A stretch of 32,000 bases of DNA from Candidatus Jordarchaeales archaeon (lineage in GTDB: Archaea; Asgardarchaeota; Jordiarchaeia; Jordiarchaeales; Freyrarchaeaceae): positions 1-32,000 of the forward strand of contig JAWCFL010000015.1 in the NCBI GenBank assembly GCA_038858525.1, in the 5' to 3' direction. Under the pieces are notes generated by a model, which did no database searches, was not told where the DNA came from, and saw only the letters and a program-made list of their open reading frames with translations. Each line of letters starts with the position of its first letter. Position 1 is the first letter of the stretch. Below are positions 12,591 to 30,154 of this stretch, in pieces. The translations under genes and the position numbers were made by a program.

Positions 12591-12633
12591 GTGGGAATAT
12601 TTAAATATGTGGGAATTAGATGTCTAGTGGGAT
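12591..12633 (+). promoter_or_regulatory. Putative vapBC promoter/operator: TATA-like TTTAAATA within three GTGGGA repeats
   Basis: GTGGGA at 12591, 12609 and 12627 (18-bp period), with palindromic ATATTTAAATAT at 12597-12608. Confidence 0.4.
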
Positions 12634-12892
12634 GAAGTTTATGGAAAGCGTAAGGGTTGATGAAAAAGGCAGGATCCTTATTCCTAAAAGGATAAGGGAA
12701 AAAGCTGGAGTGAGGGAGGGAAGCTACGTTAAAATAAAGGCAGACGAAAAGGGCATAGTGATAGAGCCTCTTAGGGATATAGCCGACAGATACTTCGGCG
12801 CCTTCAAGGTAATTGAGTGGCCGGACGACCTCGACGAATTTGTAACCGAGGTTATGAGAAAATGGTGGACTCGGACCCAGAAGGATACGTAG
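12620..12892 (+). CDS. vapB: AbrB/MazE/SpoVT-family antitoxin
   Basis: VRVDEKGRILIPKRIREKAGVREGSYVKIKADEKGIVIEP is a canonical AbrB swapped-hairpin motif. It overlaps the PIN gene. The start may be ATG 12632 or 12641. Confidence 0.9.
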   Translation: MSSGMKFMESVRVDEKGRILIPKRIREKAGVREGSYVKIKADEKGIVIEPLRDIADRYFGAFKVIEWPDDLDEFVTEVMRKWWTRTQKDT

Positions 12893-13293
12893 ACGTAAAC
12901 GTTTTTGTTTATTGGCTCGGCAACCATCCCACCTTCGGCAGAACATCCTATGAATGGATAAAGAAAATCGAATTATCTCCACGGGGAAAATATGTAACTT
13001 CAGCTCTAACATTATACCAAATAATGGTAATAATGGCTGGATTAACAGGGAGAAACCTAAGGGACCAGGAACTAATCGGAGAAGTGGTAAACTCGGTGGA
13101 GAGCTTATCCGGTTTGAGAATAATACCTTTAACGGTAGAAGACGTAACCCAAGCAGTTAAACTCATGAAAGAATATAATCTGGATTATGAGGACGCAATA
13201 CACTTAGCTTCTGCGTTAAGGAGTAATGCCAAAGAAATGATATCCAACGACGAGGACTTCGATAGAACACCATTAAAAAGAAGATTCAGTTAA
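12862..13293 (+). CDS. vapC: PIN-domain ribonuclease toxin
   Basis: YVDVNVFVYWL...SALTLYQI...YEDAIHLASA...ISNDEDFD are PIN acidic motifs. Likely start is ATG 12862. Confidence 0.9.
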   Translation: MVDSDPEGYVDVNVFVYWLGNHPTFGRTSYEWIKKIELSPRGKYVTSALTLYQIMVIMAGLTGRNLRDQELIGEVVNSVESLSGLRIIPLTVEDVTQAVKLMKEYNLDYEDAIHLASALRSNAKEMISNDEDFDRTPLKRRFS

Positions 13294-13556
13294 AAGCGTA
13301 GAGAGTTTAGACTTCCCCACCGCTTCATCAAAATTTTCATCATAAAACAAATTACTAAGAAGGAGAACCTCACGAAATCGCGAAGCGAGAAGCCAAATCC
13401 ATAACGCCCAAACGAAAGAAGGCCTAACTTTCTAATTATATTGGATTCCACCCCCGTGTTCGGTTTTCCTATGAAAACGTTTATCCTTCTACAGTCCAGC
13501 TTCGAATGCTTTATAGACTTAGAGTTCTCTATCTCCAAACTCCCTATCACAATCAT
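13290..13556 (-). pseudogene. 5' remnant of an AAA_15/AAA_21-type ATPase
   Basis: SLEIENSKSIKHSKLDCRRINVFIGKPNTGVESNII matches the ENFKS...INVFIGxPNTGKSNI N-terminus. The Walker A Lys is lost and the gene is truncated. Confidence 0.75.
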
Positions 13557-13593
13557 CCTTTCCCATAACTCGCCCTTCGGCAGCCTTCACCCG

Positions 13594-13626
13594 CAACCTT
13601 ACTAGAAACAACCTTACTAGAAACAA
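13594..13626. repeat. 15-bp tandem duplication (CAACCTTACTAGAAA x2)
   Basis: Units at 13594-13608 and 13609-13623, just upstream of the ATPase remnant. Confidence 0.9.
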
Positions 13627-13943
13627 GACAACAAGCCACGAGAGAACTTACCAAACCCAGCTTTTAGGGATTTAGTGAAAGCTTCGCGAAGCCAAACCAC
13701 CAAGTCCTCCCAGAAACCGCCAAAGGAAACACCAAAAGGGGAAGGAAACTTTATGCTTAACCTGCAAACAAAAAGCTCCGCTTACCCTTCAAGAAGAGGC
13801 AAGAGGAGGGAGGAAAACGGCGGGCAAGTTCGACAAGAAAGAAGAACGTGTTATACTCCTCGAGAGGGGCTAGTGGACTCGTAAGATAATTGCTGAAACG
13901 TAATGCTTCTATAACGAAAAGGAAAAAGTCGGTGTCGAAGCAT

Positions 13944-14130
13944 TCAACATTTAACAGCCCTCCAAGCTTCCTTCTTAACATAATAATCGAGGGATCCCTT
14001 TCGGAGTGAATGTTTAGATACCTCGATGGAATATGATGCTTGTCAAGTTCCTTCGCCCTGTTGATAAAAGGATCCATAAAGATGCTCCTCGAGTAACTGT
14101 GCAGACAAACAAGAATAATGGCTCTCTTCG
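13944..14130 (-). pseudogene. 3' remnant of a HEPN-domain gene
   Basis: FINRAKELDKHHIPSRYLNIHSERDP, then after a frameshift DYYVKKEAWRAVKC*. This matches the HEPN C-terminal LDKxYIPxRYP...DYY pattern. Confidence 0.7.
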
Positions 14131-14176
14131 CGGAGAACTAGGTCTGTTATTTATAGCTCGCCTCCCGCCTTGGATT

Positions 14177-14564
14177 TCACGAAGTTGATGATTTTTTTCC
14201 ACTAGTAAAAATGGCTCTGCCTGCATCTGTTTCGTCAAATGCTTCTGAGGGGATGCCTCCAGAGGGAGTTTGGGTAGTGGGTTGGAATGTAGAATTTGTC
14301 GAGTAGGGCGGCGTCTCGTTGAATGTTGGAGAAGTCGTCGTCGAAGTGTTATGCGTCACTGCACAAGTCAGAGGTTAAGTACCCTCACGCCTCCTCGGCA
14401 CCCTTAAGTATGAGGAAGGCTTTTAGGGCTTTTTCTGCGGATTGCTGTGCCAGAAAGCAGGCAACATTATACCTTTTGCCTGAAAGGTTATATTTTGCGT
14501 CATCCAGGTCCCGGAGCGCCTGGAGAAACCATCTTTTCGCCTCTCTCACGCTGCTGTCTCTCAT
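14177..14564 (-). pseudogene. HEPN toxin pseudogene (MNT-HEPN pair)
   Basis: REAKRWFLQALRDLDDA...ACFLAQQSAEKALKAFL...A*GYLTSDLCSDA*HFDDDFSNIQRDAALLDKFYIPTHYPNSL, then a frameshift into GGIPSEAFDETDAGRAI. Two stops and one frameshift. Confidence 0.85.
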
Positions 14565-14899
14565 AGAGGGCCCTCCCACTTCTTAAGGCAGACCTTACAA
14601 ATTGATTGCTCTCCTTCATCTCCTTAAATTCCTCCGGGGTATAGACGAGAATGCCCACCCCCTCCACCCTCGGCTCGAGATGAGCATAGAAGTCCTCCAG
14701 CCTGCTCAGAAATCCCTTATCCGTCCTCTTCACAACAATCAAATCGATATCACTTGACTTGTGAACGGAGCCCGACGCCAAAGAGCCAAAAAGAATAATT
14801 TTCTCCACATCAAACTCAACGATCCTCGGCACAATCCTCCTCAGCTCACCCTCCAAAAAGCTCTCTCCTCCTCTCCGCCAACCCCACTCTAAACGGCAT
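14561..14899 (-). pseudogene. MNT antitoxin with a 5' frameshift
   Basis: IILFGSLASGSVHKSSDIDLIVV...GILVYTPEEF...GRALYE. The natural start ATG 14899 (MPFRVGLAERRRELL) is shifted by an extra T in a T5 run. The 3' end is approximate. Confidence 0.75.
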
Positions 14900-15580
14900 A
14901 CCACCACCAAACTCTTCTAATACCAAACCTTTCAAATACATCATCTACCAAACCCATAACAACACACACTCTTATCTCTTCTTCCACTCAAACGAGTCCA
15001 TAGACCACACAAAACTACAATTCAAACTATGTCACACCTTATGCAATAAGCCAGCACTTATTCAACACGCCTGCTAAGTTAAAGTTGGGTCAGTTCACCC
15101 TAACTGAGGTCGTGATAGCTACCGGACATGTGTAGCTGGACAAGACACTGTTACAATACAAGAGCCTACATCAACTTGGTAGACCCCGGGAGGAACGAGC
15201 AAACGGGCTGACTAAAGGCAAGCTGGTCTTGTCTTCGCAACTCGCACTTCACATCTCTTAGGTTTACATTTTCACCTAACAATTTACTTTGGTCTTCGTT
15301 TTGCTGTTATTGAAGTGGAATCTTAAGGCTGGATAATCTAAATAATTTGCGAAATTAAAAGAGGTGCAGCTATGAAACAGACACCTTACTAGACAGAAAA
15401 AGGGCGTGACACTCCTACTAGAATTCCTGTGAGGATCCAAGAACTATGACCTCCCTTCAGTACCTTCCAGCCTTCCCATGCATGTTTTTAGAGGTAAAAC
15501 ATTCAATTCTTTGTCCTTTTAATGAAGTTTCTTCTTAGCAAAGCTTTCAGTATTCCAGCTATCTGCTTTTACAACTTGGC

Positions 15581-16240
15581 TCAAAAAAGAAAGGTATGGT
15601 TCTCCACGTGTGAGAGGATCCAACGGCAAGAATTGAGAAAAACATACGAGAGAGGATCCCCCATCATTATTCGGTATGTTGAGAAAAAGTTGAGATTTAT
15701 AGTCACGTACCACGTTAGGATGACATCTCTTTCAACGTAACGGTGAGTTACTCCAATGTTTGGTAACCCTAACCTATTCACCTTTTTTCTTGACGTGTCT
15801 ATAAAGGAAGTCATCTTTGCAGTAGAAAATTTTCGGGGTGTTGTAGTCAAAAAACACCGCCCTCTTTATCAGGGTGTTACAAACGAACGGTGTCTCCCTT
15901 TATATAGACTGGTTTTATCTTGCTAGTAACATTCTTGTAAGGCTTCAATATGTATGTCGTCATCTGTGCATACTGTTGAAACGGCTACAACATTTGGATA
16001 CTTGGTAAACTTGCTAACAACGTCAAACCGGTTTGATGGGATTTCGACGTCATCGTCGAACATAGTTATCCATTCGGTTTTGCATTTCATTGCTCCTTAT
16101 CTTTCTCGGCTATAGACAATGGTTTCGAAGTCTCAAATACAATATTGTTAACCCATGGAGCATTCGCAAGAACCTTTATCAAATTAGGATTTACTATTTG
16201 ATGGGTCTTTGGTTGGGATTAAAACATCAATCTTGTCCAT
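15581..16240 (-). pseudogene. Glycosyltransferase family 2 (GT-A) pseudogene
   Basis: Manual multi-frame reading: MDKIDVLIPTKDP / LIKVLANAPWVNNIVFETSKPLSIA / GAMKCKTEWITMFDDDVEIP (DxD) / DDFLYRHVKKKG. Several frameshifts. Confidence 0.6.
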
Positions 16241-16539
16241 TGCAAGCAATAATATGCATTCGAACTTAAAAGTTAATGTGCCACAAGTAAAAGTTCTGCT
16301 CCAGCTTAATTTCGTTAAACTGCTTGGGAGTATAACGCCGAGTGGCTTCCTCCCACTAGCTGCTATCATTTATTCATTACTGTTACCAAGACTCTGTCAT
16401 TCGAAGATCGAGAGCTTAGTTCTTAATATACCCTCCTTTTACCGTAAGAAACCCTGTTTTTGCATTTTTAGGTATTTTAATGATAATGAAAAAACCGTGT
16501 TTTACATCACTATCAATCTATTGGCTTAGATTGTCGATT

Positions 16540-18021
16540 TTATTTAGGTAGGACGAAAGTTATGATGTGAAAATTGTCAATTTTATCGAGTTTGTAAAGG
16601 TCAAAACCAGCTTCTTTTGTTATCTCTATGCATTTTTCAAGAATAGTTTTGTCTTCTTCATGCAAAATCGTTGTAAAATACCGAGATGACTTAAGGACGC
16701 GGCGCATTTCAAGGACGAATCTAGTGTACATGTCTAAGTATTTCTTTAGATCTTTTCCTTGTCTAGGATTCACTACAAACTCCTTTTCGAAATCCAGTTC
16801 CTCTTTCATCCATGAAGTATAGAAGGTGCTCAATTCAAAGAATTGCGCTTCGTCCGTGTGAGGCGGATCCGTTATAACATAGTCAACGGAGTTATCGGGT
16901 AATGAGAGCTTTGCTGCATCATCTAAAAGAAAGGCTACGTCAGCTTTTTTTCCAAGTACTTCTGCGTTTCCTCCCTCTTTTCGCTTACATTGACAAGAAG
17001 ATAGCTTGTGTATAAGGTCATTTGCCGCTCTTATAAAGACGTAGAATGGATTTCTAATTACATACTTGCGAGGTATCCAATAGCTGTTTATTGGCCAGGT
17101 GCCTCCAGAAGGCCTATTCATTTTACTGCTCCTTGCAAGAGTTGCCATGAAAATTAGGTGTAAACACTTTTTTGTAGTGTATGAAACGTTTATTTCGTTG
17201 ATCTTGTGCCAAAGGTATGATAGGAAAGCAAGAGTTCGGCTGTCAAAAAACTCGTGAACACGTTCCACATCTCTCTTCTTTAAAAATGGTTTCCCATCAG
17301 GATACCTCAGTTCAGTTTTTGGATACCAATATGCCGGGCGAATAGGATCCTCAATCAGCCACTCAGGCTCACAAAAACCATTTATTTCCGTTCTCCCGCA
17401 AATACATGGTTTAACATAATTAATCTCAATGGGTAAAACTTGTTCTGTAACAGCACCCATTTTAATTAAACCTTTTAGCGCATTGGTGACTCCATTTTTC
17501 TGTATGTCAGACAGTTGTTCCACAAGCTTTTCATGTGTTACAAAATCACTTTCTCTAATTTTTTCCAGTACCTTTCTTCGCAGCTTGGTAGCTTTTTCAG
17601 GCTCAAAATTAAACATGTAAAACCTAGTAAAAATTATAGACTTTACCTCTGCTATTTCGCCACAAGGGCACTTTATTGAAAAAAGTTCTTTTCTGCTAAC
17701 TTTTATCTTCTTCTCTCCAGTAACAACCTCGATTTCTTCATCCTGAACAATGACGTCTATAACCTTTTTCAGCTCTTCGACATCGCAACCCAAAATAGTT
17801 CCCTCTGCAATAAGCTTAGCGAATGAATTAAGGTCGACATAAATAGCTCTTCTTCCTAATTCAAGAGCTACCTTCACTATGTTTCCGCTTCCGGCAAACG
17901 GGTCAAGAACCACCTCACCCTCCTTCGTGAACTCTTCAATATATTTTGACACCATAAAAGGCGGCTTCCTCCCCCAGTACCTCACCAACTTAGGACTATC
18001 GACAACCATTTTTGTCACCAT
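16540..18021 (-). CDS. Amino-DNA methyltransferase (N6-A/N4-C), alpha-type motif order, with Cys-flanked HTH-like insert
   Basis: YWGRKP; motif I VLDPFAGSG; DLNSFA; long central region; motif IV variant DYVITDPPH. Start most likely ATG 18021, just after the upstream stop (track start 18054 overlaps). Confidence 0.88.
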   Translation of the reverse strand: MVTKMVVDSPKLVRYWGRKPPFMVSKYIEEFTKEGEVVLDPFAGSGNIVKVALELGRRAIYVDLNSFAKLIAEGTILGCDVEELKKVIDVIVQDEEIEVVTGEKKIKVSRKELFSIKCPCGEIAEVKSIIFTRFYMFNFEPEKATKLRRKVLEKIRESDFVTHEKLVEQLSDIQKNGVTNALKGLIKMGAVTEQVLPIEINYVKPCICGRTEINGFCEPEWLIEDPIRPAYWYPKTELRYPDGKPFLKKRDVERVHEFFDSRTLAFLSYLWHKINEINVSYTTKKCLHLIFMATLARSSKMNRPSGGTWPINSYWIPRKYVIRNPFYVFIRAANDLIHKLSSCQCKRKEGGNAEVLGKKADVAFLLDDAAKLSLPDNSVDYVITDPPHTDEAQFFELSTFYTSWMKEELDFEKEFVVNPRQGKDLKKYLDMYTRFVLEMRRVLKSSRYFTTILHEEDKTILEKCIEITKEAGFDLYKLDKIDNFHIITFVLPK

Positions 18022-18026
18022 ACTAA

Positions 18027-20141
18027 TTAAATTAGTGGCTTTGCATGCCTCCATAATTCATCGAATTCTTCTTTAAATCTTTTAGTTCCATGCAAACTAC
18101 AATCAATAATTAAATTTTCAACGTTTGAATCCAAACCACTAATTGTAAAATTAAATGACCCATGAAGTAGTATTACGCCGTCTACCAGCATACCCTTCGC
18201 ATGTAGTTCCTCCATAATTCTCCCTTGAAAAAGAGGAGAGTACTTTTTCGAGGCTTCAGTCAGTCTATTTATACTTTGAACTTGCACTTCGTTATCAGGG
18301 TCGATCTTCGTAAGTATACGAATTTTCAAATCTCTCTCTTCAGCTAATTTAACCAAGTTTTCAACTATTTCCGGAGATATCCATGGACTAACCAAATCGA
18401 TATTACTTTTAGCGGCTGATAGCGCTTCTTCAAATTCCTTCTTAACTCCTTTTCTTAATGGAAATGAGCACACTGGTTGTTTTATCATGATTAACATTTT
18501 TTCAAGAACTGCTTTAAGCACTCTTTCACTAACAAGGAATGGTTGATCGAATGGTAGGAAGGTACACCCTCTCTCCATCATTACACACAACTGACAACCA
18601 TCCCAACAATGCGGCCCCTTAGCCAAGAGATCATCCAACAAAGACCTTTCTTCTTCAGAAAGTCCTGAAAGGGTTTTCACTATTGCTTTACGAATAGAAT
18701 TGACATGCGGATAAATCATTGTATTAGGAAATGAGTTATAATAGGCTTTGAGTATTAAATCGACGAGTCTCTTACAATCTCTTTGAAAGAAGTCTAACTT
18801 ATTCAAATTTGTCAATTTTTTCTGAACTCTATCCTCACAATTTTCACTAAGTCCTCTTAATGCGGCAGAGACGAGCTCTTCAAGCATATTAGTCCCCTGA
18901 ATTCTTTCAACGAAACTTTTTAGGTATCCAAACCCTCCTATTGCTGTTTCAAAAAAAATCACTCTGATTTTTTCAGGAGACTCCCCCAGAACACGTAGCT
19001 TTGGATGCTCTATATAATAACTGATATCTTCAGTTTTACATCCAAATTTTGCAACTAAAGCATCTTTAAGCACATGTGCCAAACTATGAAGAAACAAAAT
19101 GCTAGCAAAATCCACAAGATCAGGAGTAATTTTCCCCCTTCGAACATCTTCGACTATTTCATTCACGGACTTGTCATGTTTCATATCTTGAACGACTTGC
19201 TCAACTATCTTGTCAAGCTTATTGAACCCTTTAAACCCTTTCCTCTCAGGTATAAACTCATGTTCTTTTTCTTCTCCCATATACAATCTGTATTTTAGAA
19301 TGACCCACCTAGCAACTTCATTATTTGATGATAGAACATCTTCGATTAATTCATATAGAGGTTCAAGCATAAATTCCAATTCAATTGCATGCACATTGCT
19401 TATTTCGAATCCCAAACCTTCTTTGAGGAAAACCGTGGGGTACGTTGGCATCCATTTAATTTTTGGGGAAAAAACAACTCCATTAATAAACATCTTAAAG
19501 CTGGCATGGTCAGTGAATCTCAAAATAGCTAACGGTTTACTCTCATATCTAATAGTTAATATTGGTAAAAAAGTGAATCCTCCGACATGTTCATCAAATT
19601 TTTTCCGAATTTGGGGATACACGTTAAAGAGACTTGAATAGGAAACAGGTCCCTTAGAGTAATATCTACACTGACTTCCTTTTGTATTCAGATAAGGACA
19701 ATCCTTTTTCTGCGGACAGCTCTGCTGAGAAGACAATAAGGTCCACCCGAGCACGCAATAATAACCTGAGTTAAGGGCAGACCAGCTAAATTCCATATAT
19801 GTTGGAGGGAAATCCCAATGACCATATTTAACATTTTCTCGTATATAAATGTACGAGCGATCCTCATCTTTTTGAAATGTAATAGCGTACAATTGATATG
19901 GATGGAGAACCGTTTTGAAAAAACGAGGCGATATGGATACTTTAAACGAATTTTTGCAGCTTTTTGAGCGCCACTCAAGTTGCGAAGTAGTTTTAATTTT
20001 AAAGTAGGCTAGTGGTGTTAGTATAAGTGTGTAATGTTTTTCAGCTTCAGCTCTCAAAAGCTTAAAGGGAGTGAATGTGTAAAGAGCTTGGATTCCTTGC
20101 CTTTGTATGGGTCGTTTGTCGAATATCTCACCTCTCGTCAT
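18027..20141 (-). CDS. DUF1998/MrfA-type Zn-binding domain fused to a C-terminal PLD-family nuclease (DrmB-DrmC-like or DpdJ-C-term/DpdK-like)
   Basis: HSLAHVL...FFETAIGGFGYL...C...HCWDGCQLC...C (DUF1998 pattern), then LVSPWI...IRILT...LHAKGMLVDG...HGSFNFT..GL..NVE (HxK(x4)D + GSxN). ATGA overlap with the helicase. Confidence 0.8.
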   Translation of the reverse strand: MTRGEIFDKRPIQRQGIQALYTFTPFKLLRAEAEKHYTLILTPLAYFKIKTTSQLEWRSKSCKNSFKVSISPRFFKTVLHPYQLYAITFQKDEDRSYIYIRENVKYGHWDFPPTYMEFSWSALNSGYYCVLGWTLLSSQQSCPQKKDCPYLNTKGSQCRYYSKGPVSYSSLFNVYPQIRKKFDEHVGGFTFLPILTIRYESKPLAILRFTDHASFKMFINGVVFSPKIKWMPTYPTVFLKEGLGFEISNVHAIELEFMLEPLYELIEDVLSSNNEVARWVILKYRLYMGEEKEHEFIPERKGFKGFNKLDKIVEQVVQDMKHDKSVNEIVEDVRRGKITPDLVDFASILFLHSLAHVLKDALVAKFGCKTEDISYYIEHPKLRVLGESPEKIRVIFFETAIGGFGYLKSFVERIQGTNMLEELVSAALRGLSENCEDRVQKKLTNLNKLDFFQRDCKRLVDLILKAYYNSFPNTMIYPHVNSIRKAIVKTLSGLSEEERSLLDDLLAKGPHCWDGCQLCVMMERGCTFLPFDQPFLVSERVLKAVLEKMLIMIKQPVCSFPLRKGVKKEFEEALSAAKSNIDLVSPWISPEIVENLVKLAEERDLKIRILTKIDPDNEVQVQSINRLTEASKKYSPLFQGRIMEELHAKGMLVDGVILLHGSFNFTISGLDSNVENLIIDCSLHGTKRFKEEFDELWRHAKPLI

Positions 20142-23008
20142 GCTTCCTCAACCCCTACTAACTCGAAATCAGGTGATGGTGTTTCTAATAACAATGAAAA
20201 GTGAATTTTTCCTTCAAAAAGCAAATTTAGTACTTGAAATAAATCAAACTTATACCCAAGCATAAGACTTGGTTCATTCTTTATTCGTTCAAAAGCCTCC
20301 TTCGCGTCAATTACTTCTAAGTCAACTGACTGAATTTTATCAAGCTTGGGAAAAATTTCGTCCAGAAGCCTAACCAGATCCGTACGTTCATCCCCTAATT
20401 CAGTTAGCTTATGTATAAACTTATTAAGGTCAGAAGAGTAGCCCGGTACAACTAATTGGATTATAATATTGCGCGTCTCATCGAGATTCATCAATTTGTC
20501 TTTAGCACTTTTAAAGACATCTGTATTCTCCCGTAACCACTTATTTATAGGATGACTTTTCTTGCTCTTTATTGCTTCATCTATTGCTTTTTGAAGACTA
20601 GAAATCCTTGGAAGAATTAAATCGATTGTCTGAGTAACTTCTCCTAATTTTTCTCTGAATTTTTCTCCAACTTCCGATAGAACCATGTTGTTCGAGGAAA
20701 TGATGTCATCTAACGCATCGACTAAGTTTTTTATTTTCTCCTTTATTTTCTTAGCCTGCTTTTTGCTATTCTCTATTAATGTTTTAATCTCACTTACTTC
20801 ACTTACTTTTTCATATTGTTTCGTTCCTGCTCGCAACTTTCTTAGTCCGTTAAGAAGTGGATCTAACAATTTGATGAATTCATTAATGGAATCTTTCAGT
20901 ACTTCCTCTTCAAAAAGCTTCACTTCCCTATTGAAATCGGGCAGGTTTTCCAGATCATTTCTAATTTCTTCTAGGCAATCTATCATGTTTTTATCTGCAC
21001 TTATGCCTTCAGTGTCTATATCGATGTATGTTTTTTTGTTTTCTAGTGTACGCTTTAGAAGAAGGAGTGAAAGAGTGTGCTGCAACTGTATATTGTGACT
21101 TGCTTTGCCTATGCGTAGAGGCGGCAAAAAACTAATGCTTTCTAAAGTTTCTCTTAGCCGCTCATCAAACATATAAAGTGTACTTAGAGGCAGCGCTGGG
21201 AATACTATAATTCCTAGGGCAATCCGATAACACGACAAATTTCTTCCAGCTCTTCCTACTCTCTGGACAACGCCTTCCGGTGTTAGCGGAAGCTTATGCT
21301 GGATTATAACTGCAACATCCGAGAGGTCTATACCTAGCTCAAGAGTCGATGTAGATAATAGCATTCGTTTTTCGCCTCTAACAAATGCGCTTTCTATTTC
21401 TGCTCTTTTTTCTAATGAAAGGCCGCCGTAATGCATATCTATACTTTGCTTATAACAATTCAGAACGAAATTTTTGAATACGGATAAATTACTACAGGTT
21501 CTTTCCGGGGCTAGTGTGATCCAACAATAATCATTAACCGGAGACTTATCTGTATTAAATATGTGATCCGTGATTTCTCTTCCTTTTCTAACTCCCAATA
21601 TAGTTGTGTGTACGTAATCTATCATAGTGCTTATTTCAGAAATGCTATCAATGAATGTTATACCTTTCATGTTATTCCTGTGACACCACAAAGTAACTGC
21701 AAGGATCAAAGCTTCTGTCAATGTTTCAATATCTTTGTCTGGATGCGGTAAAAGATAGAGATAAAGAAGAATACGATTAGATCTTTTCCCGGGGGCATTT
21801 TTGAGTGCTTCCTGAAAATCGATGTAAAAAAGTTCGGTCTCGCTTATTCCAGCTAAAGAAGCAATAAACTCTTTAGGATTAGAAATGGTAGCTGATGAAA
21901 AAACAAAAGTGGGAGGATGCCCGCGTTGGCTTGCGACAAATCTCAACATTTTTAAGATATAGCTAATATGTTCACCTAGGAAATGAGTGTACACGTGTGC
22001 TTCATCAATGACAACAAAATCCACATCATTAAATAAATTGACACTTCTTGACGACAATAACCTTCTATAGATTATCCACATGTTTGTTATAAGAATGGTC
22101 GGCTTTTTTTCCCATATATCGTCTTTAGTCGGTATAATGTAAGTATATTCTTTCCCACAATTGTTACATACCACCAGATTTCTTCCTCTTTGCGATTTAA
22201 TTATGAGCTCACCTTCTTCACAATACACACAATTTAACTTTCGAAAGCTAGCACCATCTTCTGCACTTCTCTTTCTGGGAGTATCGCTATCATCTATCCC
22301 TATAGTTATGACGTCTTTTCCGTTAGCTCGTAAGTCCAAATTTACATTATCGAGAAATTTTAAGAGTAACCGAAGCTGATCCCTTTCTAGAGCTTTCCTC
22401 GGGTAAATAAGAAGACATGCTACCCCGCCTCTGCCATTTATAATTCTCTCAATTGACCTTACAAGCAAAGGTATGAGAAAAGCAAGTGTTTTCCCTGAGG
22501 CAGTCGGTGCAACTATTGAAACATTCTTGTAAGAGCCAGAAAGGAGCTCCTTAATTATTGAATATTGATAACTAGACAGTCCCTTATATCCTGCTCGAGA
22601 TAGTGTATTGGTCAGACACTCTATAACCAAGCTGGGCGAATTAATTTCTTGGAGAATTTCACTTATCTTGTACCTCCCAAAGTCAGGCACGAGCTCTTTT
22701 CTTAAAACTATTTTGAATTCCAGCGGTATAGGATCCTGGCGTTCTAAGTTTCTGACTTGAATTAAACGGTATATTAAATCAAAATGCGTTGTTCGATAAC
22801 AGTCTTGGTCAAACGGAATAATAAGTCCCTTAGAAACTAAATCAGAAATATTTATCGTTTGACTTATCGCTAAAATGTCCTCGCTGGTGAGGAAAGTCTG
22901 AGGGGCACTGAATTTGAATGAATTGCGCTCAAGTTTTTCATATTCCAGTTCCACCAACCTTTGATAAGTATCTGCTAATTCTTCATTTATTATGCTCATC
23001 GCACTCAT
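20138..23008 (-). CDS. SF2 DEAD/DEAH-box helicase, DrmA/DpdJ/MrfA-like, with Zn finger and C-terminal coiled coil
   Basis: Q motif LSSYQ; I APTASGKT; Ia YPRKALERDQ; CVYC...CNNC; II DEAH; III SAT; IV FIDS; V STLELGID; VI QRVGRAGR. Confidence 0.92.
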   Translation of the reverse strand: MSAMSIINEELADTYQRLVELEYEKLERNSFKFSAPQTFLTSEDILAISQTINISDLVSKGLIIPFDQDCYRTTHFDLIYRLIQVRNLERQDPIPLEFKIVLRKELVPDFGRYKISEILQEINSPSLVIECLTNTLSRAGYKGLSSYQYSIIKELLSGSYKNVSIVAPTASGKTLAFLIPLLVRSIERIINGRGGVACLLIYPRKALERDQLRLLLKFLDNVNLDLRANGKDVITIGIDDSDTPRKRSAEDGASFRKLNCVYCEEGELIIKSQRGRNLVVCNNCGKEYTYIIPTKDDIWEKKPTILITNMWIIYRRLLSSRSVNLFNDVDFVVIDEAHVYTHFLGEHISYILKMLRFVASQRGHPPTFVFSSATISNPKEFIASLAGISETELFYIDFQEALKNAPGKRSNRILLYLYLLPHPDKDIETLTEALILAVTLWCHRNNMKGITFIDSISEISTMIDYVHTTILGVRKGREITDHIFNTDKSPVNDYCWITLAPERTCSNLSVFKNFVLNCYKQSIDMHYGGLSLEKRAEIESAFVRGEKRMLLSTSTLELGIDLSDVAVIIQHKLPLTPEGVVQRVGRAGRNLSCYRIALGIIVFPALPLSTLYMFDERLRETLESISFLPPLRIGKASHNIQLQHTLSLLLLKRTLENKKTYIDIDTEGISADKNMIDCLEEIRNDLENLPDFNREVKLFEEEVLKDSINEFIKLLDPLLNGLRKLRAGTKQYEKVSEVSEIKTLIENSKKQAKKIKEKIKNLVDALDDIISSNNMVLSEVGEKFREKLGEVTQTIDLILPRISSLQKAIDEAIKSKKSHPINKWLRENTDVFKSAKDKLMNLDETRNIIIQLVVPGYSSDLNKFIHKLTELGDERTDLVRLLDEIFPKLDKIQSVDLEVIDAKEAFERIKNEPSLMLGYKFDLFQVLNLLFEGKIHFSLLLETPSPDFELVGVEEA

Positions 23009-24500
23009 CCCAGTGCACAGAATTTTTGGGCAAAGAGAAAAATTTTGAAATAGGTATTACGCCTCTTTGAGCTAATTTCAGAGATCTATTAAAGTGCATC
23101 AACACACTAGAATCATTAATTGAAAGATTTAATTTATTTCTTATGATATCCTTAATTTCCATTAAATCCTTTCCTTTTCCTTGGCATTTATTTATCCAAA
23201 TGGCGATTTTTAATGCTTGAGTAATATGCATCTTTAACTCGTTTTCTTTTAGTTTAAATAAGTGATCGAAACCATAAAGAGTCAAGAGACTTTCAATTAA
23301 GGATGGATGAAGATAAAATAGAACATTATTAATGATTTGATAAACGCCTAGACTCTCCAAAATAATTTTAATTCCTTCCCATTTTTGGAGAAGACGAAAC
23401 GCAATAGTATCCCAATTAAGTTTATGCTGCTTAAAAAACGGGCTGTGAAAAACGTCTACCATCTCACGTTTTATTTTCTCTAACGTTGCTTCCAGACTTA
23501 ACGGTTCAGAAGATTCAAGATATTTTCGCCTCAACACGATGGAAGCAATAGTTATCACTATATTACTGTATTCATCATCAAACAATGCTGAAGAGTTTAA
23601 GGGATACAGTAATATTTGAAAGGAAGGATGTTTTTGCGTATATTCGTCATATATTCTTATACGCTTTATTATAACTGCCTCAGTTAATGATTTGTTTTCA
23701 ATGAGATGTGAATTTTCTTTAGGCAATAAGCAATAACATAATTTGGAATTTAGTGTATTATCGAGTATGTTGACCTTTAATTTAAGATAATGATTTCCTG
23801 ATGTTTTAACTTGCTTCGGGTCTAGATAACAGACCGTTTTATGGAGTGTAAAAATATCTAACTGTCTGTCACCAATGATTATGAATGGTGATTCATACCA
23901 TACAAATTTGTTTGTCAGGTCTGGGGGGTATAAAGCATTGAATATGTATTTTTTACTCAACTTAAGGGTTGAATCAACGTTGTTGCACCAGATTCTTTCC
24001 ACAGATTTAAGCCAGGCAAAATTAGCCATTGAAATATAGACATTTTTTGATGGAGAAAGAATAGTAAACAGAAAATTTTTGAGACGAAGATATTTTAAAC
24101 TAGATGGATCTAATATTGCTTGTTTTTCACCCCAATAGACAGCTGTAAAGATTCTATCAAATGAGAAGCTGTAAACTGGAAGGAAAGATGCTCTTTTGTG
24201 AAGTACTACGGGAGTTAGTGATAAATCTCGCTTGATCAAATTACGCCATTTAACTTGAGGGAATATTTCTCCAATTTCAAATATAAAGAACAATTTATTT
24301 AAATTTGTGGAACTGCAACTATCCTTTAGTTGCAATCTAATACAAAAATTCTGTTCATCGATACCTATGCACGGATGTTTATTACTATGAAGAAAATTAT
24401 ATGCACGAAACAAGTATTCCTTGTAGCTTTTTTGCATTATTTTATTTCCTTTTAAAATGTAATTCATATGCTCCTCAAGAACAACTTTTTCAACGTCCAT
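22983..24500 (-). CDS. Hypothetical protein (~505 aa), first gene of the low-GC operon
   Basis: Long uninterrupted ORF overlapping the helicase start by 26 bp. No recognisable motif. ATG 24500 is preferred because TTG 24521 lies too close to the TATA box. Confidence 0.75.
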   Translation of the reverse strand: MDVEKVVLEEHMNYILKGNKIMQKSYKEYLFRAYNFLHSNKHPCIGIDEQNFCIRLQLKDSCSSTNLNKLFFIFEIGEIFPQVKWRNLIKRDLSLTPVVLHKRASFLPVYSFSFDRIFTAVYWGEKQAILDPSSLKYLRLKNFLFTILSPSKNVYISMANFAWLKSVERIWCNNVDSTLKLSKKYIFNALYPPDLTNKFVWYESPFIIIGDRQLDIFTLHKTVCYLDPKQVKTSGNHYLKLKVNILDNTLNSKLCYCLLPKENSHLIENKSLTEAVIIKRIRIYDEYTQKHPSFQILLYPLNSSALFDDEYSNIVITIASIVLRRKYLESSEPLSLEATLEKIKREMVDVFHSPFFKQHKLNWDTIAFRLLQKWEGIKIILESLGVYQIINNVLFYLHPSLIESLLTLYGFDHLFKLKENELKMHITQALKIAIWINKCQGKGKDLMEIKDIIRNKLNLSINDSSVLMHFNRSLKLAQRGVIPISKFFSLPKNSVHWDECDEHNK

Positions 24501-24539
24501 AAAGCTCCATTCACCTCTCAAAAAATAGGTGATTGATTT

Positions 24540-24554
24540 TATATAAACTTTTTG
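24540..24554 (-). promoter_or_regulatory. Archaeal BRE + TATA promoter of the helicase operon
   Basis: Minus strand reads CAAAAAG-TTTATATA, about 40 bp upstream of ATG 24500, with GAGGTG and GGAG RBS-like motifs in between. Confidence 0.65.
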
Positions 24555-24897
24555 TCACTTACTAAAGTTGTGTAATAATTTGCTTTCATATAATGAATTT
24601 ATGAAGAAGTGAATGAGCTCTCTTTAATGAGTGTTTAAATCGCCCCTAAAACCTGCAAAGTTCTGCGAAATGGTTTCACCCAAGGAGGCGACCAAAGAGG
24701 AATTGTACAAAACGCCTAAACCTTCGGTAGAGGTGAGTTTATAGTGAAGCTGACCTCTCCCGACTTTATAAAGACTCCTCCTGTTAACTGTAATTTAAAA
24801 TTGAACAATCCGGCTGATTAAAAATTTGAACTATTATGAAGCGTGGAGCGTTGATGTTTTTAAGAGCAGTAAGTAAGGAGTTGAGTGGTGGAAGTAG

Positions 24898-25200
24898 GTG
24901 AGGTCTCTTAGCGAAGTTATAGAGGTTATCAGGAGGCATAGGGAGGAGCTTAGAGAGCGGTATGGTGTTAAGGAGATGGGTTTTTGCTCCCTTGTTAGAG
25001 GAAAGAGTGATGTCGACATACTTGTCGAATTTGAGAAGCCTATCAGCTCTTCAATTTTCTCGGGCTGGAGGATTACCTCAGCAGCTTGATGAGTGGAAGG
25101 GCGGACCTCTTTTCCAAGAAGGCGCTGAAGTCGCACATCGAAAAACACATCTTTAAAGAGGTCGTAATTGTATGAAGATGAAAGGAGACGTTAGGGATTA
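24898..25200 (+). pseudogene. MNT pseudogene plus a 5' stub of its probable HEPN/DUF86 partner
   Basis: IRRHREELRERYGVKEMGFCSLVRGKSDVDILVEFEKPIS, then frameshifted LEDYLSSL...KHIFKEVV, followed by MKMKGDVRDY and truncation. Confidence 0.8.
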
Positions 25201-25374
25201 TGTGTTGCGCGCTGTCATTCATTCAAGAGACCGAGGTGGAGGGTGCGTTTGCGCTTTCCGTGGTAAGTTTTTATTTTTTAGATGCTTTTGTATATGATGC
25301 ATATTTTGTGTGTAATGTATATTTTGTTGGTTTGGTGGTGTTTTTGTCTACTGTTAGGATAAGTGATGATAATA

Positions 25375-25600
25375 AGATGGTTCTTGTATTGGTTAATTCT
25401 AGGATTAGGGAGATGTTTTGAAGGAAAATGAGTGTTGATGGAGATGATACGTTTTTGGCGGAGTTGTTTCTTAGGAGGGGGAGTAGTGTGATGGATTTTT
25501 CGGTGTGTTGAGGGATTTGGATGTTGGGGAGCTGAACTCCCTTTTGAGGGTTGAGCGGGAGGGTGAGGAGGAGAGGTTGAGGAGGCTTGAGGGAGAGAGT
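25375..25600 (+). pseudogene. Degenerate AbrB-like antitoxin
   Basis: Fragments SRIREMF / SV.DF.GVLRDLDVGELNSLLRVEREGEEERLRRL directly upstream of the PIN remnant. Confidence 0.5.
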
Positions 25601-25981
25601 GGTTGTTGATGCTGGTGCGTGGCTGGAGTTTTTCGCTGGGAGTAGTGTTGGGGGGGAAGCTGGTGGGCCTCATTGAAGGCGCGGAGGTGTATGTTCCAGC
25701 TTTAGTTGTTTCTGAGCTTTTCTATGTCCTCTGCAGGAAGGTGGGGGGAGGAGCGCGCAGCAGAAATCGTTAGGAGGTTCGTTGATTCTGTGAAGGTTGT
25801 TAGTGATGTGGGTTTGTTCTTGGAGGCTGATGGTCAAGTGTAAGGCTCCCATAGCCCTGGCTGATTGCAGCGTGCTTGTTCTGGCGTCCATGGGGGGTGG
25901 AAAGGCGGTTTTCAGGAGAAGGAGAAGGAGCTGGAGAAGGCTGAAAGGAAAAAACCACTAAAAAAGGGTAGAGTACCTTGA
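25587..25981 (+). pseudogene. PIN-domain (VapC) pseudogene
   Basis: Reconstructed VVVDAGAWLEFFAGS...VPALVVSELFYVLCRK...KCKAPIALADCSVLVLA, with +1 shifts in two G runs and a further indel. Confidence 0.8.
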
Positions 25982-26098
25982 ACAAGACCAGTAATCAAGT
26001 GAGGGCTACAAGTGTTGCGCTCGTTGTTTCATTAATTTCTGGCGACAAAAGAAACGTTAATTGTGGTGCTGTGTATATGTTGGGTTTGGGTGTTGATT

Positions 26099-26324
26099 GT
26101 GATTAGAAAAGTTCGTCTTGAGAATTTTGGGGGTGTGGCTGAGGGGGTTGTTGAGGGGGGCTGAGCAGATGACTTTGCTTGTTGGTAGGAATGGTGCTGG
26201 TAAGTCTACATGTTGGAGGAATTGTATCTCGTGTCGGGTGCGTCCAGCGTCTCGACGGGGTGAAGGGAGTAGTATATTGGATTACGTTGTAGGTAGGAGA
26301 GGGTGTCGGGGTTATATGGAATAA
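26099..26324 (+). pseudogene. AAA_15/AAA_21-type ATPase pseudogene (may extend to ~26600)
   Basis: MIRKVRLENFGGVAEGVVEG / EQMTLLVGRNGAGKST (Walker A) / EELYLV / LDYVVGRRG, with frameshifts and stops. Confidence 0.8.
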
Positions 26325-26646
26325 GGATAGGCGCGTTCTCTGGTATTTGGAGAAGTTGAGAAAACAGGTCAGGATAGAGCGTGGACGTTGATAGTGTTGT
26401 CTATGATTTTCAGATACTCGATGATGAATGAAGAGGGAGCTGTACGCTGCGTGGCAAACGGGTTTCGGATGTCGACATTTTTCCGGTGAGTCGTGGCGGG
26501 AGACTTGCTCGATGTTTTGGTTTCCTTTGTATAAAGCGCCATAACAGTTTGGCGGCAGCGCATCGCTAGGGAAAAGGGTGGTTTCTACGGTTAACTCAAC
26601 AAGAATTCGCTTGTTGGGATAATTTTTGGGGGGATTAACTTGTTTT

Positions 26647-27582
26647 TTACTTTTTTCTTTTTGCGATGCCTGACCATGAAGCTTGGTTTAGGCCTCTCTT
26701 CCTTGCGGCTTCTGTTAGGAGGTCCATTTTTTCCTCGGTTATCAGGTCGTCGTTTTCGAATTCCCAGCTTATGCCTAGCCTCTTGTACTTTTTAAGGCAG
26801 GCTTTATTAAAGGCTAATAATTCGTATCTTTCAGCTGTAGGAAGATTTTCTCTTATGAAGTCTGCAATTTTTTCGATGTTTTTTGCATCGTCCGTGTATC
26901 GTGGGATGATGGGGGTCCGAGCCCAAATAGGCTTGCCTAGTTCAGCTATTCTTTTGGCGTTTGTTAATACGAGGCTGAGTGGGACCCCGAGACACTTTAA
27001 GTGCTTCTCTTCATCCATTAGCTTTATGTCGAGTATTACGAGTTCCGTGTTTTTCACTACGGGTTCTAGAAGCCTCCAATCGACCCCCAAACTTGTTTCG
27101 ACGGCTGTGTGAATGCCCTTTTTCCTGAGTTCTTTAAGTAGGTTGGTTGAAAATTCGGATTGAATTGCTGGCTCTCCTCCGGAAAGCGTTACACCGCCTC
27201 CGGATTTCTCATAGAACACTTCATCTCTAAGAAGTATCGAGACAACCTCGTCCACCGTGTATTGTTTTCCGTAGATTTCGAGGGCGCCAGCTGGGCATGC
27301 TTCTACGCATTTTCCGCAGTAACTGCATCTATCTCTTAGTATTTCTATTCCATTTCGCCCCGTTTTTATGGCTTCACTGGGACATATTTTAGCGCATTTG
27401 CCATCCTTGATGCAGAGTTCTTCATACCAGACTATTTCAGGGTGCATTTTTATGCCCTCTGGATTTTGACACCAGGGACATTTCATTCTGCAACCCTTTA
27501 GGAAAACAGTCGTCCTGATCCCGGGGCCGTCTTCAGTGCAATGACGCTGTATATTGAAAATAAGACCAGTATCTGGATTCAT
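26647..27582 (-). CDS. Glycyl-radical enzyme activating enzyme (radical SAM) with 2x[4Fe-4S] ferredoxin insert
   Basis: DGPGIRTTVFLKGCRMKCPWCQNPE (CxxxCxxC), CIKDGKCAKICP, CSYCGKCVEACP, GGGVTLSGGEP. Directly downstream of the GRE. Confidence 0.95.
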   Translation of the reverse strand: MNPDTGLIFNIQRHCTEDGPGIRTTVFLKGCRMKCPWCQNPEGIKMHPEIVWYEELCIKDGKCAKICPSEAIKTGRNGIEILRDRCSYCGKCVEACPAGALEIYGKQYTVDEVVSILLRDEVFYEKSGGGVTLSGGEPAIQSEFSTNLLKELRKKGIHTAVETSLGVDWRLLEPVVKNTELVILDIKLMDEEKHLKCLGVPLSLVLTNAKRIAELGKPIWARTPIIPRYTDDAKNIEKIADFIRENLPTAERYELLAFNKACLKKYKRLGISWEFENDDLITEEKMDLLTEAARKRGLNQASWSGIAKRKK

Positions 27583-27628
27583 TCAATCACCAAACAGATA
27601 AAAGGTGAGAAAAAAGAAAATTAGGGGG

Positions 27629-30154
27629 TTACGCTTCATATTCGAAGCGGGCTATTATTTCGTCTTGTAGGACTTTCGGTAGGTCTACGAATCTGAAGGA
27701 GTATCCGGAGACTTTGACTACCAGGTCGGGGTATTTTTCTGGGTGCTTCTGGGCGTCTAGCAGTGTTTCTTTGCTTAGGGGGTTGAATTGAACCATTCTG
27801 CATCCCAGCTCGAAGGCTGCCTCGATTAAGGATGCAAACTTTTCCAGTCCCTCGCTGCTCTTTATTGTTGCCGGGTTGAGGTTTAGTGTTAGTGATGTCC
27901 CGTCGCTCTGGTTGGCTTTTGACACTACCGCTGCCGATTTCAAAACAGCGGTGAGACCGTTTTTCGCTGTTCCATCCACCGGGTTGATCCCGATCGCGAC
28001 CGGATTGTACGCCAGTCTTCCATCAGGTGTCGCTCCTATCAGTTTTCCTTCTAGGATCTGAGTGCCTGAAACCGAGATAAGGCACGTTCTGTGGGGGCCT
28101 CCCATCCAGCACATTCTTTTTCTTGCCTCTCTGTCGAGGACTTTTGCTGCCCAGAGAGCTAGCTCGTCCACGTATGGGTCGTCGTTTCCGTATTTTGGTG
28201 CTTTAAGTAGAATTTGTCTGACCTCCTCAGAGTCCTTGAAGTTGCTTCTGAGGGCTGATAATAGCTCTTGCATAGTGATGAGTTTCTTGTCGAATACCGC
28301 CCACTTGATTGCGGCTAGTGAATTGGCTATCGTCGCTATTCCCTGAGCGCTGACATTGGAGTGGTTGTATTTGGCTCCCCCACTCGTGAAGTCCTTAGCT
28401 GACTCTATGCATCCTTCAATCGTTGCTGAAAGAATCGGCACCGGGTAGTTTTCTGCGATTATCATGTCTTTTATGTAGGATTTCCTTACGCATAGGTCTA
28501 CCGCGTATTCAATTTGCTTCTCGAAGGCTTTCAGCACGTCCTCGAATCTTTCAAAGTTCGTCGGTGTTTCGGCTCCAACTTGCTTCCAGCCGAGTATGTG
28601 TAGTCGGCCGCCGTTTAAGGCTGCCTCTAAGACGGAGGGCAGCCGGATGCATTGCCCGGAAGTGTATCCGTTGTTGTTTCCGCTTCCCGTTGGCTCCACA
28701 CACCCCACGATCGAATAGTCGCGGGCGTCTTCTATTAGGTAGCCGTCAGCCACGAGGCCTCTAATTATCGTGGTGTCATTGTGGAACGCCACTCCGCCTG
28801 TTACGCGGTAAACTTCCGCTGCTTTAAGCAGGAAGTCGCGTGGGGTGTTGGGTGCGACCCTAACAGCTAGTCCGGTGCGGCCACACCCTCTTAACCTTTT
28901 TAGCGCCTCTATGAATAGGTAACTGACATCATTTACGGCGCAGTTGCCATTTCTGTCAACCCCACCGATGGTTATGTTGTTCGGGCCGAAGTAGATGTCC
29001 TGTGCAACCTTTATGAGGTACTCCATAAGGAGCTCCAGCGCTTTTTCCGGCGTTATTCTGCCACTTTCAACATCTTGCTTGTAGTAGGGGTATAAGTATT
29101 GGTCTACCCTGCCTGGGGCTATTATCATTTCTCCTCCGTATGCTATTGCCATGACGACTTGGGTGAACCAGATGGCTTGTAGAGCCTCAACGAATGTTGA
29201 GGGTGGTTCTGCGGGTACCCGTCTAATTCGTTTAGCGACCTCTAGGAGTTCACGTCTCCTCTCGTCGCCCGCCTTTGATGCTAAGTCTTCAGCAAGCACA
29301 GCAAATCTCTCTGCAAATTCGCAGACAGCTTCAGCAGACACTATCACGGCTTCCAGGAAGTCTTTAGCTTTTTTGAATTCTTCAGAGTCTTCTGGGAGGC
29401 TCTTTCTTAGCTCCTCTAACCTCTCTTGTGCCTGTCGCGCGATCCCCCTGAAGCCTAAGTCAAGCACTTTCTTTGTCCCAATAGTGATATGTCCTTGCAT
29501 CGGCGTAACTGCTACAAGACAATCCATGTCGTATGGCGCTGACCAGATGAACTTGTATTTCTCAACGAACTCGTCTGGAATCTTTATGGGCTCGCCCAGC
29601 AATCCCTCTTCAGCAAATTTCCTCGTTATGAGCGCCGAAACTGACCGCTCCCGCCAGTAGGGTATAATTTCCGTGGTTAACAGTCGAAATTCTTCGTCTG
29701 AGAGGGATTTAGCTAATTCCATTAACCTCTCTGCGGAGAGGCTTCCAATCCCATCCTGGAAAGCCTCCTTAATTTTTTCTGGATTGTTTCGAAACAGCAA
29801 TGGCATCAATATCTCTCTTGAAGCCGGCCCAAATACCTCAACACCTAATGGGATTCCTCCTCTTTTTCCCGCCCAGCAACCCACTATAAGTTCCTCGTCT
29901 TCAATTCTAATACTCATGTTCCTTAATGTTTCACGAAAAGCCATCGCTGCACGCATACAAGGACCTATGGGTTGACTTTCAGTAGCCTTGTACACCCGCG
30001 TATACCACAACATTCTTTCGATGTCGGTTTGAAGCGGCGTATTCAAAACCTTCTCTTTATATTTCCTGATCCTTTCAGGAACGCCGGCTTCTACTTCCTC
30101 TCCCTTTACAACAGTCCCCCTACAAACAGTTTCTACAACTTTTTCCGTTCCCAT
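27629..30154 (-). CDS. Glycyl-radical enzyme (PFL2/dehydratase-lyase-like clade), substrate unknown
   Basis: 841 aa. Cys loop YSIVGCVEP; Gly loop LVVKVSGYS; GRVDQYLYPYY; PKYGNDD; GATPDGR. Confidence 0.95.
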   Translation of the reverse strand: MGTEKVVETVCRGTVVKGEEVEAGVPERIRKYKEKVLNTPLQTDIERMLWYTRVYKATESQPIGPCMRAAMAFRETLRNMSIRIEDEELIVGCWAGKRGGIPLGVEVFGPASREILMPLLFRNNPEKIKEAFQDGIGSLSAERLMELAKSLSDEEFRLLTTEIIPYWRERSVSALITRKFAEEGLLGEPIKIPDEFVEKYKFIWSAPYDMDCLVAVTPMQGHITIGTKKVLDLGFRGIARQAQERLEELRKSLPEDSEEFKKAKDFLEAVIVSAEAVCEFAERFAVLAEDLASKAGDERRRELLEVAKRIRRVPAEPPSTFVEALQAIWFTQVVMAIAYGGEMIIAPGRVDQYLYPYYKQDVESGRITPEKALELLMEYLIKVAQDIYFGPNNITIGGVDRNGNCAVNDVSYLFIEALKRLRGCGRTGLAVRVAPNTPRDFLLKAAEVYRVTGGVAFHNDTTIIRGLVADGYLIEDARDYSIVGCVEPTGSGNNNGYTSGQCIRLPSVLEAALNGGRLHILGWKQVGAETPTNFERFEDVLKAFEKQIEYAVDLCVRKSYIKDMIIAENYPVPILSATIEGCIESAKDFTSGGAKYNHSNVSAQGIATIANSLAAIKWAVFDKKLITMQELLSALRSNFKDSEEVRQILLKAPKYGNDDPYVDELALWAAKVLDREARKRMCWMGGPHRTCLISVSGTQILEGKLIGATPDGRLAYNPVAIGINPVDGTAKNGLTAVLKSAAVVSKANQSDGTSLTLNLNPATIKSSEGLEKFASLIEAAFELGCRMVQFNPLSKETLLDAQKHPEKYPDLVVKVSGYSFRFVDLPKVLQDEIIARFEYEA

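Follow-up and report, generated by a model that had tools for sequence, protein, structure and literature searches.

The 32,000-nucleotide stretch of DNA analysed here (the window; positions 1 to 32,000 of contig JAWCFL010000015.1 in the assembly GCA_038858525.1 of a Candidatus Jordarchaeales archaeon) contains an operon of four genes, A-B-C-D, all located on the minus strand and spanning positions 16540-24500, which we consider rather likely to be an antiviral module that resembles restriction-modification, belongs to the YprA-helicase (DISARM/Dpd) superfamily and was acquired horizontally. Gene A (22983-24500) encodes a lead protein of 505 amino acids (aa), gene B (20138-23008) a 956-aa DEAH helicase of the YprA/MrfA family, gene C (18027-20141) a 704-aa fusion of an OB-CON-DUF1998 canopy with a predicted phospholipase D (PLD) nuclease, and gene D (16540-18054) a 504-aa predicted DNA amino-methyltransferase (MTase). 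The system is real and conserved, and probably defensive in its function. Most likely, it is an as yet unnamed variant that falls under the "uncharacterized DISARM-like/Dpd-like classes" mentioned by Bell et al. (2025; PMC12458937), and not a categorically new kind of system. The original prediction, made for this DNA from its sequence alone, had spoken of a candidate new defence system; the uncatalogued and conserved gene cluster stands, but its distance from the described systems was overstated, as genes B and C together make up a split helicase of the YprA family with a PLD nuclease.

The core of the module is formed by genes B and C. In the product of gene B, Pfam recognizes the DEAD (4e-21) and Helicase_C (2e-15) domains, and the best PDB match (phmmer) is YprA/MrfA of B. 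subtilis (6znp, 1.9e-24), which stands first, with Serratia DrmA not being within the best 60 of the 104 PDB sequence matches. The protein consists of an N-terminal region, a RecA1 domain with the GKT and DEAH motifs, a RecA2 domain with the QRVGRAGR motif and a helical or coiled-coil tail of about 350 aa (residues ~600-956) with weak matches to BAR, Laminin and MCP-type domains; it has no DUF1998 module of its own. Inserted into RecA1 is a Zn ribbon of the CxxC...CxxC type (C260, C263, C281, C284), whose cysteines, together with the GKT, DEAH and QxxGRxGR motifs, are invariant or nearly so among 28 homologues.

In gene C, Pfam finds PLDc_2 (3e-18) and MZB (5e-6). Its AlphaFold2 model has a mean predicted local distance difference test score (pLDDT) of 87 and a predicted template modelling score of 0.84. 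In this model residues 4-550 superimpose on the OB-CON-DUF1998 part of MrfA (506-749) with Z of 13.5 and a root mean square deviation of 4.4 over 240 aligned residues, and the N-terminal part matches DrmB (7s9v_B) in Foldseek with E of 4e-5; none of the PADLOC DrmB models matched gene C at E < 0.1. From these matches of the gene C canopy to MrfA and DrmB, we conclude that genes B and C together amount to one YprA-type helicase, divided where the DISARM helicase is divided into DrmA and DrmB. The canopy (residues ~4-550) contains an extra four-cysteine cluster (129-158) and the four-cysteine cluster of DUF1998 (512-526; C512, C516, C519 and C526), and all eight cysteines are invariant among the homologues. 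Only one helix (539-554) lies in the model between the latter cluster and the PLD domain (554-704), which has a single HKD motif (HAKGMLVD...GSFNFT), kept as HxK(x)4D...GSxN in 23 of the 24 gene C homologues. Fold comparison of residues 554-703 gives NucT (Z 18.7), Nuc (Z 18.0) and SauUSI (Z 15.8), and the profile of the domain finds Zucchini (8e-12) and Nuc (1.3e-10) in PDB; by fold and motif, the domain is a predicted nuclease of the Nuc/NucT/Zucchini type. The fusion of DUF1998 with PLD in one 704-aa polypeptide, proposed earlier, is therefore confirmed.

Gene D, according to its motifs and profile matches, encodes a DNA amino-methyltransferase acting on adenine-N6 or cytosine-N4, and not a C5 enzyme. 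The Pfam N6_N4_Mtase match (2e-15) aligns residues 28-83 of the protein with positions 164-219 of the profile; the PADLOC matches to MTase_II (1.7e-30) and PglXI (5.6e-30) are both partial, and the PDB profile matches, to M.RsrI and N4-cytosine MTases, cover the S-adenosylmethionine-binding part only. Motif I (DPFAGSG) is found near the N-terminus and motif IV (DPPH) near residue 397, and this order makes the enzyme an alpha-type MTase, as had been claimed. Motif IV reads DPPH in the closest clade, DPPF in more distant members and HPPY in one of the related loci described below (L013). The protein also has a CxC...CxC Zn ribbon, into which a helical segment is inserted, about 85 aa lying between the CxC pairs (residues ~129-219); its distant homologues in loci L004 and L010 are without this segment, with the cysteines kept. 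An alignment with five homologous MTases indicates that the true start of gene D is probably 18021 or 18009, later than 18054.

The cluster recurs in other archaea. Gene C has 54 homologues of close length, nearly all of them archaeal, from Sulfolobales and from metagenomes or metagenome-assembled genomes labelled as Verstraete-, Bathy- and Aenigmatarchaeota. The order A-B-C-D is kept, at 40-66% identity and with unrelated flanks, in loci L001, L002/L003, L004 and L010, and in L012 a distant member of the gene A family (P0109, E of 1e-17) precedes a 993-aa helicase and a 705-aa fusion protein; the lead gene and its partners, whose joint occurrence elsewhere had been set as a test by the original prediction, are thus found together in all these loci. 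In Saccharolobus caldissimus and Sulfolobus islandicus (L005, L006), the B-C pair is present at 28-30% identity, along with a convergent D12-like MTase of about 360 aa. At the lead-gene position, S. caldissimus has one gene of about 435 aa and S. islandicus (L006:5824-7139) two open reading frames (ORFs) of 236 and 174 aa; in the latter organism the lead gene may be disrupted. In L007 and in Halosimplex marinum (L011) the lead position is taken by an unrelated DUF2254-like protein, 585-592 aa long, and an MTase of the Eco57I or N6_Mtase type is present. These two loci (L007:1222-9596 and L011:3310-12600) constitute a sister clade of the B-C core, and their lead protein is predicted to be a membrane one. 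The L007 member has lost the HKD residues, the Halosimplex member has no PLD domain according to Pfam, and the effector in this clade may differ.

Unsplit helicase-DUF1998-PLD proteins of 1,586-1,638 aa, 30-38% identical to gene B, are encoded in two further loci (L013:8001-12917 and L014:8001-12761), in each case preceded by a lead protein of 491-495 aa and, in L013, followed downstream by an N6_N4-like MTase. These loci represent the same system, with the gene left unsplit. Altogether, an MTase is adjacent in 10 of the 11 loci where this could be judged, and these MTases belong to three families: N6_N4-type in the window, L001, L002, L004, L010 and L013, D12-like in L005 and L006, and Eco57I or N6_Mtase in L007 and L011. 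The persistence of this linkage despite the change of the MTase family is the signature of a restriction-modification-type system. The universal part of the system is the B-C core only, while the lead gene and the MTase family vary between clades. Among the neighbours of the related loci are recombinases, primase, TnpB, TFIIB, type I restriction-modification, DUF499/DUF1156, Schlafen-like and MNT genes.

The glycerol kinase encoded in the window falls into one cluster, at no less than 90% identity, with proteins labelled Candidatus Jordarchaeales; the host is therefore an Asgard archaeon. In the Jordarchaeales genome the operon is part of an insert. Comparison by blastn of the window with contig 3 of a genome of the same genus (G114, 95% complete; locus L016) delimits 8,982 bp at positions 16241-25222, in place of which G114 has about 400 bp between the blocks homologous to window positions 15668-16240 and 25223-25398. 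The insert comprises the operon and a truncated MNT-like gene (24898-25089, plus strand), and its G+C content is 36.5%. For the operon itself the value is 36.1%, with 0.29-0.37 at third codon positions, versus 47.5% for the genome (2.09 Mb) and 53% for glpK; among 830 genome-wide 8-kb segments, no other is as low. The low G+C content stated earlier is therefore real, but the claimed 27-32% pertain to single sequence lines and not to the operon as a whole. None of 399 other genomes of the phylum, three of them from the same genus, carries gene C. Judging from its sequence context, the operon is horizontally acquired. The window contains no tRNA gene and no Rfam family.

The lead protein, gene A, has no match in Pfam, PADLOC, NCBIfam or PDB when taken as a single sequence, and none in PDB or Pfam when taken as a 30-member profile. 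At the same time, a profile search of 1.84 billion representative proteins retrieved a family of 43 clusters at 50% identity, so that the term "orphan" used in the original prediction holds with respect to the libraries tried, but not with respect to the protein itself. The most conserved part of the family is the N-terminal half (residues ~55-250), with the motifs LPxYSxSxD...YWG, SxxNxxWP, YxFNxLxPP and HKT; the AlphaFold2 model (pLDDT 57) leaves residues 40-205 unmodelled. In the C-terminal half an OB-like barrel (~215-302) and a winged helix (~302-400) are predicted, with weak fold matches to OB and winged-helix proteins (Z of 5-6.6) and, in a separate comparison, to SSB, RecJ_OB and RecO at TM < 0.5. 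A Foldseek search of the AlphaFold DB clusters gave full-length matches to uncharacterized proteins of 418-494 aa with E down to 8e-12. In every locus with gene A, an overlap of the reading frames couples it to the helicase gene; a complex prediction of gene A with helicase residues 600-956 scored 0.24, the mark being 0.32, and is evidence neither way. Gene A probably has relatives in Sulfolobales, as is suggested by its profile alignment with the 435-aa lead protein of Saccharolobus (hhalign, 39%, E of 3e-4), which in itself is suggestive only. No homology of gene A to the lead proteins of Halosimplex L011, L013 and L014 was revealed by hhalign (probabilities of 0.9, 2.7 and 9%, respectively), nor to a 441-aa neighbour in L015 (0.1%).

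As to the arrangement of the operon, the ORF of gene A extends over 22983-24521, with an in-frame ATG at 24500. Genes A and B overlap by 26 nucleotides (nt), and genes B and C by 4 nt (ATGA). For genes C and D, a start of gene D at 18054 means an overlap of 28 nt, and a start at its ATG at 18021 a gap of 5 nt. Of the junctions described in the original prediction, the two overlaps are thus correct, and the 5-nt gap exists only with the later start. A putative archaeal promoter (24539-24556, minus strand) was read from the sequence as a TTTATATAA TATA box at 24547-24539, 39-47 nt 5' of the gene A ATG, with a purine-rich stretch resembling the transcription factor B recognition element (BRE) just upstream; the ORF coordinates and the reading of this box agree with the earlier description of four co-oriented genes behind a BRE/TATA promoter. 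A GGTGA sequence is located at 24515-24511, 10 nt ahead of the same ATG. On the other side, an oligo-T run (T6; 16488-16495, minus strand), some 45-50 nt past the MTase stop, is likely to act as the archaeal terminator of the operon.

The relation of the operon to known systems was evaluated with the defence libraries PADLOC-DB v2 and NCBIfam, and the relation to DrmA, DpdJ, DruE and MrfA was judged from model scores. DISARM consists of DrmA, DrmB and DrmC with either DrmMI and DrmD or DrmMII and DrmE, and its DrmAB structure is 7S9V. The system was reportedly described by Ofir et al. in 2018. In common with it, the operon has a YprA-type helicase with the OB-CON-DUF1998 part encoded by the next gene, a PLD nuclease, an MTase in the operon and an extra accessory gene. 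However, here DUF1998 and PLD are parts of one polypeptide, with no separate helical-bundle domain between them, PLD being the C-terminal domain of gene C, whereas DrmC is a stand-alone protein, usually with an N-terminal four-helix bundle. Besides, the MTase of the N6_N4 type is neither a PglX-like DrmMI nor a C5 DrmMII, and DrmD and DrmE are lacking in the window: the scan, confined to its ORFs of at least 100 aa and not extended to the rest of the genome, revealed no match to SNF2, DrmE, TGT, dpdA-C or the queuosine/7-deazaguanine pathway, in agreement with the original prediction, which had seen neither an SNF2 DrmD nor dpdA/queuosine genes.

With Dpd, the operon shares the Zn module inside RecA1 and the PLD domain without a preceding helical bundle, both being features of canonical DpdJ and of the Dpd PLD protein (Bell et al., 2025; PMC12458937), and of the defence models, DpdJ scores best with gene B and DpdK with the PLD domain. 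In contrast to Dpd, the helicase here is split, the four-cysteine cluster of DUF1998, lost in canonical Dpd, is kept, none of the dpdA-I genes was found in the window, and the DNA mark is presumably methylation and not 7-deazaguanine. The order helicase, DUF1998, PLD in the unsplit relatives (1,586-1,638 aa) is that of DruE of Druantia III. However, the DruE models reach only the Helicase_C segment (gene B residues ~533-600, 47-49 bits; up to 77 bits in the unsplit protein P0220), there is no DruH, gene A being without a PADLOC match, and the locus includes an MTase. By sequence, none of the BrxA-like, beta-barrel and MarR inserts characteristic of ARMADA and Druantia was detected here. SauUSI likewise joins a PLD nuclease (Z 15.8) to a superfamily 2 motor for restriction, but it is a modification-dependent enzyme (type IV) made of one chain, and it has neither an MTase nor a DUF1998 module. 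In the literature, no paper naming or testing the system was found, the supplementary accession table of Bell et al. being available in part, and none mentioning the Sulfolobales protein accessions.

A more far-reaching interpretation can be put forward only tentatively. It holds that the operon represents a third, separately nameable branch of DISARM/Dpd, essentially archaeal (Thermoproteota, Asgard, Halobacteria), in which the canopy carries the PLD effector, methylation replaces the 7-deazaguanine mark, and gene A is a new subunit sensing single-stranded DNA (ssDNA) or DNA, with an undescribed N-terminal fold or activity. If this were true, gene A would decide when the motor-nuclease fires.

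It is unlikely that the operon is just an ordinary divergent member of a system that has a name already, namely DISARM (class 1 or 2) or Dpd. The helicase and DUF1998 are indeed split as in DISARM, a Zn module lies inside RecA1 as in canonical DpdJ, and the best defence models for gene B in PADLOC, all of them partial matches, are DpdJ (140 bits), BrxHI (90.4 bits) and DrmA (88-90 bits), those for the PLD domain being DpdK and DrmC. But the curated scores are far below the cut-offs: in NCBIfam, gene B reaches 122.4 bits with DpdJ (cut-off 800), and the PLD domain 48.6 bits with DpdK (cut-off 100) and 22.8 bits with DISARM_DrmC_I (cut-off 133). The second NCBIfam model for gene B, TIGR03817 (DECH_helic, 103 bits), is annotated only as a putative DEAH-box helicase. 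None of the four proteins has a PADLOC DrmB, DrmD or DrmE match, and the absence of SNF2, DrmE, dpdA-C and 7-deazaguanine genes among the scanned ORFs, the fused DUF1998-PLD, the MTase of neither DISARM type and the dedicated lead-gene family also argue against this possibility. The earlier statement that the cluster is related to DISARM and Dpd but corresponds to no known system exactly is justified, none of the catalogued systems being reached at threshold.

We consider it quite improbable that the operon is a module of DNA repair or replication restart similar to MrfAB, with the MTase as an unrelated neighbour. Among solved structures, MrfA comes closest to gene B (1.9e-24) and also to the N-terminal part of gene C (Z 13.5), the helicase family and the canopy fold are the same, and MrfA acts together with the nuclease MrfB (Bell et al., 2025). 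However, here the helicase gene is split, PLD replaces the MrfB exonuclease, and the genes are MTase-linked, mobile, patchy and island-borne: they are found in none of the 399 other genomes of the phylum and lie in a low-G+C insert missing from a genome of the same genus, the linkage to an MTase persists though the MTase family changes, and the neighbours include genes of defence and mobile elements. Moreover, split, Zn-rich, nuclease-linked YprA homologues are placed in the defence branch by Bell et al. (2025). Finally, the idea that an integrated virus or plasmid carries the operon for its own benefit, in competitor exclusion or replication and not in host defence, with gene A as an initiator-like DNA-binding protein, is highly improbable: the feature neighbours of gene A in a language-model protein atlas are plasmid Rep-like clusters, and homologous loci adjoin recombinases, TFIIB, primase and TnpB, but the score of these neighbours (0.77-0.80) is at the chance level, as one in three shuffled proteins also has its first match at 0.8 or above, the 9-kb insert contains no integrase, replication or capsid gene, and the four genes travel together while the flanks differ at every locus.

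For the restriction-modification-like antiviral module, the following scheme could be proposed. Gene D would methylate adenine-N6 or cytosine-N4 at a host motif, thereby marking self DNA. Gene B would supply the ATPase core, the Zn ribbon and the long helical arm, and gene C the OB-CON-DUF1998 canopy, which would close over ssDNA, and the effector PLD nuclease. Precedents for such an assembly exist, as DrmAB forms a complex, the canopy of MrfA clamps ssDNA, and both DISARM and Dpd pair helicases of this kind with PLD nucleases (Bell et al., 2025; PMC12458937). The B-C motor would engage incoming unmarked DNA, probably where it is single-stranded or has free ends, as DISARM and MrfA do, and the cut would be made by the PLD domain. 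The latter is likely to act as a dimer, since a protein with a single HKD motif should pair with a second copy to form the active site. Gene A would be an accessory specific to the family, its most plausible role being that of a sensor or regulator that binds nucleic acids.

Several observations weigh against this interpretation. Neither an integrase nor target-site repeats mark the island as mobile; at its borders, the search for direct or inverted repeats gave only short chance-like matches. Library matches do not make the function of gene A recognisable, and its conserved N-terminal half is unmodelled (pLDDT < 50). A role in repair is formally conceivable, as the nearest solved relative of gene B is MrfA, a protein of DNA repair, and not DrmA. 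In DISARM, methylation is not the sole discriminator between self and non-self, so the methylation logic suggested for the operon may be incomplete. Nor can the nuclease be the universal effector, given the loss of the HKD residues in the L007-type clade.

The surroundings of the operon deserve a brief description. MNT genes similar to PADLOC PDC-S09 are located at 14500-14910 (minus strand), 24898-25089 (plus strand) and 30787-31299 (plus strand), the middle one being truncated to 63 aa; by their matches, they are toxin-antitoxin-type modules and remnants, and the toxin-antitoxin debris noted earlier around the operon has thus been identified as genes of the MNT type. Two nearby stretches, of 9.2-15.5 kb and 25.4-30.7 kb, are also insertions or deletions relative to G114, and together with the insert they indicate that the region is a variable hot spot. 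The first of them (9162-15526; 6.4 kb in the window, about 1 kb in G114) is gene-poor, with short or truncated ORFs such as a 168-aa metallo-beta-lactamase fragment at 11563-12069, and looks like decayed inserted DNA. In the second one (25399-30743), 5.3 kb in the window correspond to about 350 bp in G114; a pyruvate-formate-lyase-like glycyl-radical enzyme and its activase (26647-30154) are missing at the syntenic position in G114 and, in view of this difference in length, look like an insertion or deletion too. At 7842-9116 (plus strand), a 424-aa protein is encoded which has no Pfam match and a weak match to PADLOC PDC-S05 (E of 3e-4, residues 290-369); it is kept in G114 at 80% DNA identity, and multiple transmembrane segments and a PLD-like motif had been seen in it earlier.

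In general, antiviral defence of archaea is far less charted than that of bacteria, and, judging from PADLOC-DB v2 and NCBIfam, the standard catalogues would call no complete system in this operon. The family bridges the architectures of DISARM, Dpd and Druantia III, with the helicase, DUF1998 and PLD parts split in two places or unsplit, and its interchangeable MTases and lead genes provide a natural series for studying the coupling of YprA-type motors to nucleases and self-marking. The protein of the lead-gene family is wholly uncharacterized, although its motifs are strongly conserved. Since members of the family are present in cultivable and genetically tractable Sulfolobales (S. islandicus and Saccharolobus caldissimus), the hypothesis is directly testable. 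The presence of the operon in an Asgard (Jordarchaeales) genome documents the flow of defence-module genes among thermophilic archaea.

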